Shown here: piece by piece, positions 33,049-33,083 of the stretch
How positions within the stretch are numbered: position 1 is the first letter of the stretch
How the letters are laid out: each line of letters begins with the position of its first letter
Assembly: GCF_046105845.1 (NCBI RefSeq)
Contig: NZ_CP151004.1
DNA from: Escherichia coli
GTDB lineage: Bacteria; Pseudomonadota; Gammaproteobacteria; Enterobacterales; Enterobacteriaceae
Length of the DNA stretch: 64,000 nt
Reading direction: 5' to 3' (one strand)
Made by a program: the position numbers and the translations under genes
Notes under the pieces: generated by a model
What the model was told of the DNA's origin: nothing
Databases searched by the model: none
Seen by the model: only the letters and a program-made list of their open reading frames with translations

Positions 33049-33083
33049 CAGTTTGAATTAATGCGCATCGGCTTAAACCGATG
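33049..33083. repeat. perfect 14-bp-arm inverted repeat between the two MFS genes
   Basis: ttaatgcgcatcgg cttaaa ccgatgcgcattaa. Confidence 0.7.

Follow-up and report, generated by a model that had tools for sequence, protein, structure and literature searches.

The window, i.e. the whole 64-kb stretch of Escherichia coli DNA analysed here, carries a perfect palindrome between two neighbouring genes for MFS transporters. In the RefSeq annotation the gene order is yihU, aldolase, Zn-dependent alcohol dehydrogenase (ADH), MFS, MFS and aldose 1-epimerase, followed by yihX, yihY and dtd, while the other side of the cluster has a divergent sugar kinase and a DeoR regulator. The locus is the 'short yih cassette (yihTUVW)', which is found in about one quarter of complete E. 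coli genomes. The 3-kb region was present in 1,328-1,342 of the 5,426 complete E. coli genomes and was 99.8% identical to many chromosomes; two to four of the matching places sat on records labelled plasmid, not chromosome. The short yih cassette has been described in Nissle 1917 and other strains, where sulfoquinovose does not induce it and where YihW, the DeoR-type regulator of the cluster, binds the yihU/yihV intergenic region in EMSA (PMC12608037). The main text of that paper makes no mention of the four genes past the aldolase (ADH, the two MFS genes and the epimerase), and its supplement lists no expression values for these four. The transporter genes and the palindrome, which is called hairpin 1 in its transcribed form, are located as follows.

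33093..34526, minus strand: MFS1, a 477-aa MFS transporter; the upstream gene, whose stop codon abuts hairpin 1.
31645..32994, minus strand: MFS2, a 449-aa transporter of the metabolite/H+ symporter type; the downstream gene.
33058..33091, minus strand: hairpin 1, sense RNA UUAAUGCGCAUCGG / UUUAAG / CCGAUGCGCAUUAA.
33078..33091, minus strand: 5' arm of hairpin 1 on the transcript, beginning 1 nt past the MFS1 stop; the plus-strand arm reads CCGATGCGCATTAA.
33072..33077, minus strand: loop of hairpin 1, UUUAAG on the sense strand in this window; the plus-strand spacer reads CTTAAA.
33058..33071, minus strand: 3' arm of hairpin 1, followed by UUCAAACUG, a poor U-tract; the plus-strand arm reads TTAATGCGCATCGG.

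At about 30768-39400 of the window, the yihTUVW cassette is continued in the same orientation by the ADH, the two MFS transporters and the aldose 1-epimerase. A protein-guided scan with one genome per species returned 28 loci with genes for MFS1 relatives. Citrobacter, Mixta, Erwinia, Phytobacter, Trabulsiella, Enterobacter and Edaphovirga preserve the order and common orientation of the six genes that run from yihU to the epimerase, and the greater part of the unit was also syntenic in Budvicia, Leminorella, Vibrio, Succinivibrionaceae and Sutterella; it was found with rearrangement in alpha- and beta-proteobacteria. The spacers between the six genes are short in many genera. The unit looks like a self-contained catabolic operon rather than a truncated sulfoquinovose cassette. 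Judged by its sequence, the short yih cassette is a complete and widely conserved operon with its own transporters and an internal RNA structure. Its six co-oriented genes, or eight with the kinase and the regulator, bear on the question of what the cassette metabolises.

The original prediction had placed the palindrome ttaatgcgcatcgg-cttaaa-ccgatgcgcattaa at 33049-33083. Its sequence, the perfect 14-bp arms and the 6-nt spacer were all as quoted, but the coordinates were off by about 9 nt, as the palindrome actually occupies 33058-33091. Its reported place, immediately after the stop of the upstream transporter gene and about 60 nt before the start of the downstream one, is right given that both MFS genes lie on the minus strand. 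On the transcript, 1 nt separates the MFS1 stop codon (TAA, 33095-33093) from the hairpin (33091-33058), and 63 nt lie between the end of the hairpin and the MFS2 ATG (32994-32992). The palindrome ranks second in length among the perfect inverted repeats of the window, where other long inverted repeats, at 51469 and 42621, are classical hairpins with flanking A- and T-tracts. By chance, the base composition predicts only 0.0019 perfect repeats of this kind (arms of 14 bp or more, loops of 3-10 nt) per window. Folding energies, suggested earlier as a check, were far below those of shuffled controls: the sense-strand RNA (81 nt) folded at -31.1 kcal/mol (z = -5.7, with 0 of 200 shuffles as good) and the palindrome as DNA at -16.8 kcal/mol (z = -6.4). 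Hairpin 1 has 14 Watson-Crick pairs, to which a U·G pair may be added, leaving a UUAA loop; its stability is about -24 kcal/mol, and the core of its stem, GCGCAUCGG/CCGAUGCGC, includes seven G-C pairs.

A dispersed repeat of the REP or MITE kind was rejected: in a BLAST search of the 5,426 E. coli genomes, the spacer matched at one locus in each genome carrying it, and where a genome seemed to have a second place, the palindrome had matched itself on the reverse strand. No further copy of the palindrome was found within the window. Hairpin 1 shares with the REP/BIME extragenic palindromes a length of about 35 nt and an extragenic position past a stop codon between co-transcribed genes. Unlike them, it occurs once per genome and at the short-yih locus only, bears no similarity to the REP consensus and is not arranged in clusters or tandems. 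An Rfam scan with permissive E-values returned only the family psRNA14 (RF02351), with 30.1 bits (E = 0.0016-0.005) for the minus strand and 24.3 bits for the plus strand, which is sub-threshold, the minus-strand score being half of the 60-bit gathering threshold. The likeness consists of a long near-perfect hairpin with a UAAA-type loop, whereas the match lacks 26 of the 33 internal positions of the model, and a match on both strands would be given by any palindrome. Membership in psRNA14 was rejected on these three grounds; a literature search for psRNA14 found nothing.

In the orthologous spacers of Citrobacter, Mixta and Trabulsiella, a hairpin is located at the same place with a different sequence; that of C. 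amalonaticus, for instance, reads CAAGCGCGTCGA/TGG/TCGGCGCGCTTG after MFS1. Covariation was evaluated over the 14-pair stem in an alignment of 14 orthologous spacers (a 10-sequence version was also made). In the 14-sequence alignment, 89% of the cells pair, compared with 27-46% when the 3' partners are slid by one to three columns, and double (compensatory) changes were observed in 7 of the 14 stem pairs. None of 500 column shuffles reached the observed covariation score; since the sequences are related, shuffle controls overstate significance, while the slid controls keep the relatedness. The GCGC core of the stem is invariant, so that part is uninformative on covariation. A clean compensatory change from A-U to C-G relative to the window was found in the Escherichia sp. 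genome L002. RNAalifold on the full spacers independently recovered hairpin 1 as consensus structure, together with a stem that sequesters the Shine-Dalgarno sequence of MFS2.

Every ortholog with hairpin 1 starts it 1-10 nt past the MFS1 stop. Unrelated GC-rich hairpins occupy the same position in Edaphovirga, Leminorella, Budvicia, Vibrio, Succinivibrionaceae, Roseospira and a second, paralogous Citrobacter locus, and a hairpin after MFS1 is missing only in three loci, where the spacer is about 16-20 nt long. Conservation in related genomes, the lack of which the original prediction had named as refuting, was borne out for the pairing, kept by compensatory changes, and not for the arm sequence, which has diverged. 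Erwinia, Enterobacter and Phytobacter retain only a decayed hairpin 1 of 5-8 pairs (-8 to -9 kcal/mol), and the same three genera possess a perfect 11-bp stem followed by UUUUCUC 40 nt downstream of the hairpin 1 site. As hairpin 1 is decayed where the strong downstream hairpin appears, one stable stem seems always to be kept between MFS1 and MFS2.

Because the Escherichia arms are perfectly Watson-Crick, the strand and the level (RNA or DNA) at which the element acts had to be deduced from the orthologs. Seven orthologs outside Escherichia have a strong stem; in each of them the sense fold was more stable than its antisense counterpart, by 1.7-10.8 kcal/mol, and their sense stems together contained 13 G·U pairs, the antisense stems none. 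A G·U pair is tolerated in RNA but becomes a C·A mismatch on the opposite strand; the selected structure therefore appears to be that of the coding-strand transcript. The loop is 3 to 8 nt long among the orthologs, a variation that is harmless to a hairpin yet alters the half-site spacing for a protein. The palindrome is thus best read as a conserved sense-strand intercistronic mRNA stem-loop, not as a regulator-binding site.

The same observations bear on the proposal that the palindrome is a DNA operator, where a dimeric transcription factor on two 14-bp half-sites would control a promoter for MFS2. In duplex DNA the inverted repeat is indeed perfect, it lies 63 nt ahead of the MFS2 start and has a self-complementary octamer ATGCGCAT within each arm, and it shares dyad symmetry with the palindromic operators of dimeric repressors of the DeoR, LacI and GntR types. 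Against an operator, the arms diverge even among close genera (ATGCGCATCGG, AAGCGCGTCG and AGGCGCGTTGG, each with compensating partners) while pairing is conserved, the half-site spacing varies, the G·U pairs are strand-specific and a DNA palindrome would have C·A mismatches in their place, and the hairpins of distant relatives at the same place are unrelated. The palindrome differs from operators of those types also in not adjoining a promoter and in having no second copy in the regulon. No sigma-70-like promoter site was found in 32995-33092 by a consensus scan, which is weak evidence as it relies on the consensus only. The half-site, which was to be searched for elsewhere in the cluster, recurred at chance level only: allowing two mismatches, the 14-nt half-site had one further match in the 64-kb window, at 20564, as expected by chance, and the 11-nt and 10-nt cores gave chance-level counts with none in the control regions of the cluster. 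No motif resembling the half-site was seen when the yihU/yihV control region, the one bound by YihW (PMC12608037), was read directly. The operator part of the original prediction is accordingly not supported, and we consider it highly improbable.

The other part, a terminator hairpin, fared differently. Covariation, sense-only G·U pairs and hairpins in distant relatives all agree with an RNA structure, whereas hairpin 1 is not a canonical intrinsic terminator. The earlier remark on the lack of a strong T-run holds true on the sense strand, whose tail is UUCAAACUG. Terminators were scored with the d'Aubenton-Carafa (1990) discriminant d, used as a heuristic only, with stem boundaries optimised. 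In the best case, hairpin 1 of the window scored d = -5 on the sense strand, below the terminator threshold, while two textbook terminators of the same window, used as controls, scored +21 and +30. Other orthologs ranged from -3 to -33 on the sense strand, and 11 of the 13 sequences scored were negative. The sense tail in E. coli, UUCAAACU, or UUAAUUCA past the GC core, falls short of about five or more U in 8 nt. Hence, hairpin 1 in E. coli is at best a weak terminator.

It may nevertheless be a leaky Rho-independent terminator, an attenuator whose low-to-moderate termination alone sets the MFS1/MFS2 polarity, and whose action could be suppressed by a closely following ribosome since the stem begins at the stop codon. 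The GC-rich stem agrees with this explanation, as do the scores of several orthologs near the threshold (-3 to -10), among which the best-case E. coli value falls, and the start of the stem 1 nt past the stop codon, which it even overlaps in the O104-type allele. A proper U-run is found only in metagenomic orthologs of Citrobacter type (L033-L036), which have GCGC followed by UUUUUCGU and score d = +13.7; a metagenome scan with the conserved Shine-Dalgarno-region pattern returned only five loci, all of this one Citrobacter-type lineage. A true U-run in that lineage suggests that the ancestral role may be plain termination rather than stabilisation. Set against it, the E. coli sense tail, UUAAUUCAAAC or UUCAAACUG, is poor, most scores lie far below those of the control terminators, a consensus scan called no terminator on the minus strand at hairpin 1, and it is the stem and not the U-tract that is conserved among the orthologs. 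Thus, leaky termination as the sole cause of the polarity is possible but on balance doubtful. As a check on Rho loading, the spacer downstream of hairpin 1 was found to hold 11 C and 7 G in 41 nt, only a slight bias of C over G.

In that consensus scan, only the plus-strand orientation, with the hairpin followed by ATTATTTCTT, was listed as terminator-like, and a terminator for antisense transcripts was accordingly considered. Its U-rich tail merely complements the Lys-Lys-stop codons of MFS1. The best antisense scores were negative in all nine sequences (-9 to -41), the antisense stems were the weaker ones in all seven non-Escherichia orthologs compared, and the several kb upstream hold no plus-strand gene. 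The negative scores and the strand asymmetry led us to reject this explanation, which is scarcely credible.

Within E. coli, the stem is accompanied by a loop that occurs in both orientations. The following plus-strand alleles were distinguished.

This window: loop CTTAAA.
O104:H4: loop TTTAAG, the exact reverse complement of the window allele.
C4: loop CTTAAG, fully palindromic.

On the sense strand, the loop reads CUUAAA in about one third of the cassette-bearing E. coli genomes and CUUAAG in strain C4. The O104:H4-type and EC261 alleles have A in place of T at 33092, which extends the stem to 16 bp and takes in two A's of the stop codon. Strain EC261 carries the O104:H4 haplotype at all variable flanking sites within ±200 nt, but the loop of the window; this combination points to an inversion of the loop in one step or to a short templated conversion, while the C4 allele also permits a route of two point mutations between the loop orientations. 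With both orientations common, recognition of the loop sequence as such is unlikely. Chloroplast non-coding DNA and E. coli mutation studies provide known cases of minute hairpin-loop inversions and quasipalindrome template-switch mutations. The present case resembles them in that a 6-nt loop appears in both orientations among E. coli strains, even on the same flanking haplotype, and differs in being a population polymorphism with no evident functional consequence, for which the C4 intermediate allows a two-step route.

These events raise the question of whether the palindrome is functionless DNA, namely a relic of an old terminator that was 'perfected' by intrastrand template switching (quasipalindrome correction) and has no present role. 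The Escherichia arms, longer and perfectly complementary unlike those of the orthologs, would fit such an origin. So would the two loop orientations with their fully palindromic intermediate and the flipped loop of EC261 on a haplotype otherwise identical to that of O104:H4, loop flips being a signature of hairpin-templated DNA events. A relic does not explain why independent compensatory changes in several genera keep the stem, why G·U pairs are biased to the sense strand, or why other hairpins replace it at the same site, which argues for selection on structure. Furthermore, all 1,328 cassette-bearing complete genomes fall into two groups: 886 differ by at most one mismatch from the 111-nt spacer of the window, and 442 do so from the O104:H4 form. 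We therefore regard a functionless relic as unlikely.

Hairpin 1 is not the only structured part of the operon, as the following elements illustrate.

33035..33047, minus strand: hairpin 2, a vestigial CCAC/GUGG stem followed by UUCGUAU.
32999..33021, minus strand: stem UUUCUC.CCU...AGG.GAGGAA, which sequesters the MFS2 Shine-Dalgarno sequence GGAGAGG (33001-33007).
34555..34578, minus strand: second intercistronic stem-loop, UGGCGCUG/CGUCACGU/CAGCGCCA, in the ADH-to-MFS1 spacer, with no U-tract.

At the hairpin 2 site, about 45-67 nt past the MFS1 stop, the loci of Erwinia, Enterobacter and Phytobacter (L007, L025 and L027) carry their 11-bp stem and UUUUCUC, a terminator-like arrangement; the second hairpin of Enterobacter scored d = +12.8. 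Hairpin 1 and hairpin 2 appear to compensate for each other. The sequence of the Shine-Dalgarno stem is nearly invariant in 13 orthologs, with one covarying pair, and this stem is possibly a translational damper of MFS2. The stem-loop at 34555-34578 begins 17 nt past the ADH stop and, over 12 orthologs, was 96% paired with five double-change pairs, so that MFS1 is bracketed by two conserved hairpins. A covarying hairpin with no U-tract between ADH and MFS1 points to segmental structuring of the operon mRNA.

Taken as one unit, the whole 98-nt MFS1-MFS2 spacer might be a conserved riboregulatory leader that makes MFS2 expression conditional. Its parts would be hairpin 1, the hairpin 2 (or terminator) site and the stem sequestering the MFS2 Shine-Dalgarno sequence, and the condition could be, for example, MFS1 translation reaching the stop at or in the stem, temperature, or a bound factor. 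If true, the spacer would be more than a passive boundary of decay or termination; we look upon this as a long shot.

We favour the explanation that hairpin 1 is an intercistronic stem-loop, which probably marks a 3' boundary by weak termination or exonuclease protection and thereby uncouples MFS1 from MFS2. The palindrome would be transcribed within a polycistronic minus-strand mRNA spanning yihU, aldolase, ADH, MFS1, MFS2 and aldose epimerase, and would work as an RNA stem-loop on this sense transcript, not as a DNA site. A fraction of the transcripts would end at hairpin 1, through weak termination and/or stalling of 3'-to-5' exonucleases at the stem, and the upstream part of the mRNA, up to and including MFS1, would then be shielded by the stem. 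Expression of MFS2 and the epimerase would be lower, aided by the conserved stem that sequesters the MFS2 ribosome-binding site. The data show the structure, its position and strand, the compensatory changes that conserve it and its low terminator score; an effect on transcript ends, transcript stability and the MFS1:MFS2 expression ratio is what we infer.

Intercistronic mRNA-stabilising stem-loops include the E. coli malE-malF REP hairpins and those of the Rhodobacter capsulatus puf operon and of papB-papA, and are reportedly known from Newbury et al. in 1987 and from Belasco and colleagues. In malEFG, puf and pap, such stem-loops shield the upstream segment from 3' exonucleases and the distal genes are lowered. 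Two properties of this class were found in hairpin 1, i.e. stability between co-oriented cistrons and conservation of structure rather than sequence. Like the malE-malF, puf and papB-papA elements, it is a stable stem-loop just past the upstream stop in an operon, with no U-tract, and the same upstream protection from 3' exonucleases with lower distal expression is what we propose for it. It differs from the malE-malF REP hairpins in being single-copy and outside the REP repeat family. With intrinsic terminators and operon attenuators it has in common the GC-rich stem right after the stop, a U-run in some orthologs, and a neighbouring hairpin 2 site that is a full terminator in Enterobacter, Erwinia and Phytobacter; the E. 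coli tail, in contrast, has scattered U's only and the score is below threshold. Hairpin 1 is an ordinary class of element. Its importance is modest: it would account for unequal levels of the operon's two transporters, in an accessory operon carried by Nissle 1917 and many ExPEC strains.

A further stem was noticed at the far end of the operon. In the epimerase-to-yihX spacer (30628-30770, minus strand), a 13-bp stem pairs an A-tract with a U-tract, UUGCGAAAAAGC...GCUUUUUCGCAA, and is probably the operon-end terminator.
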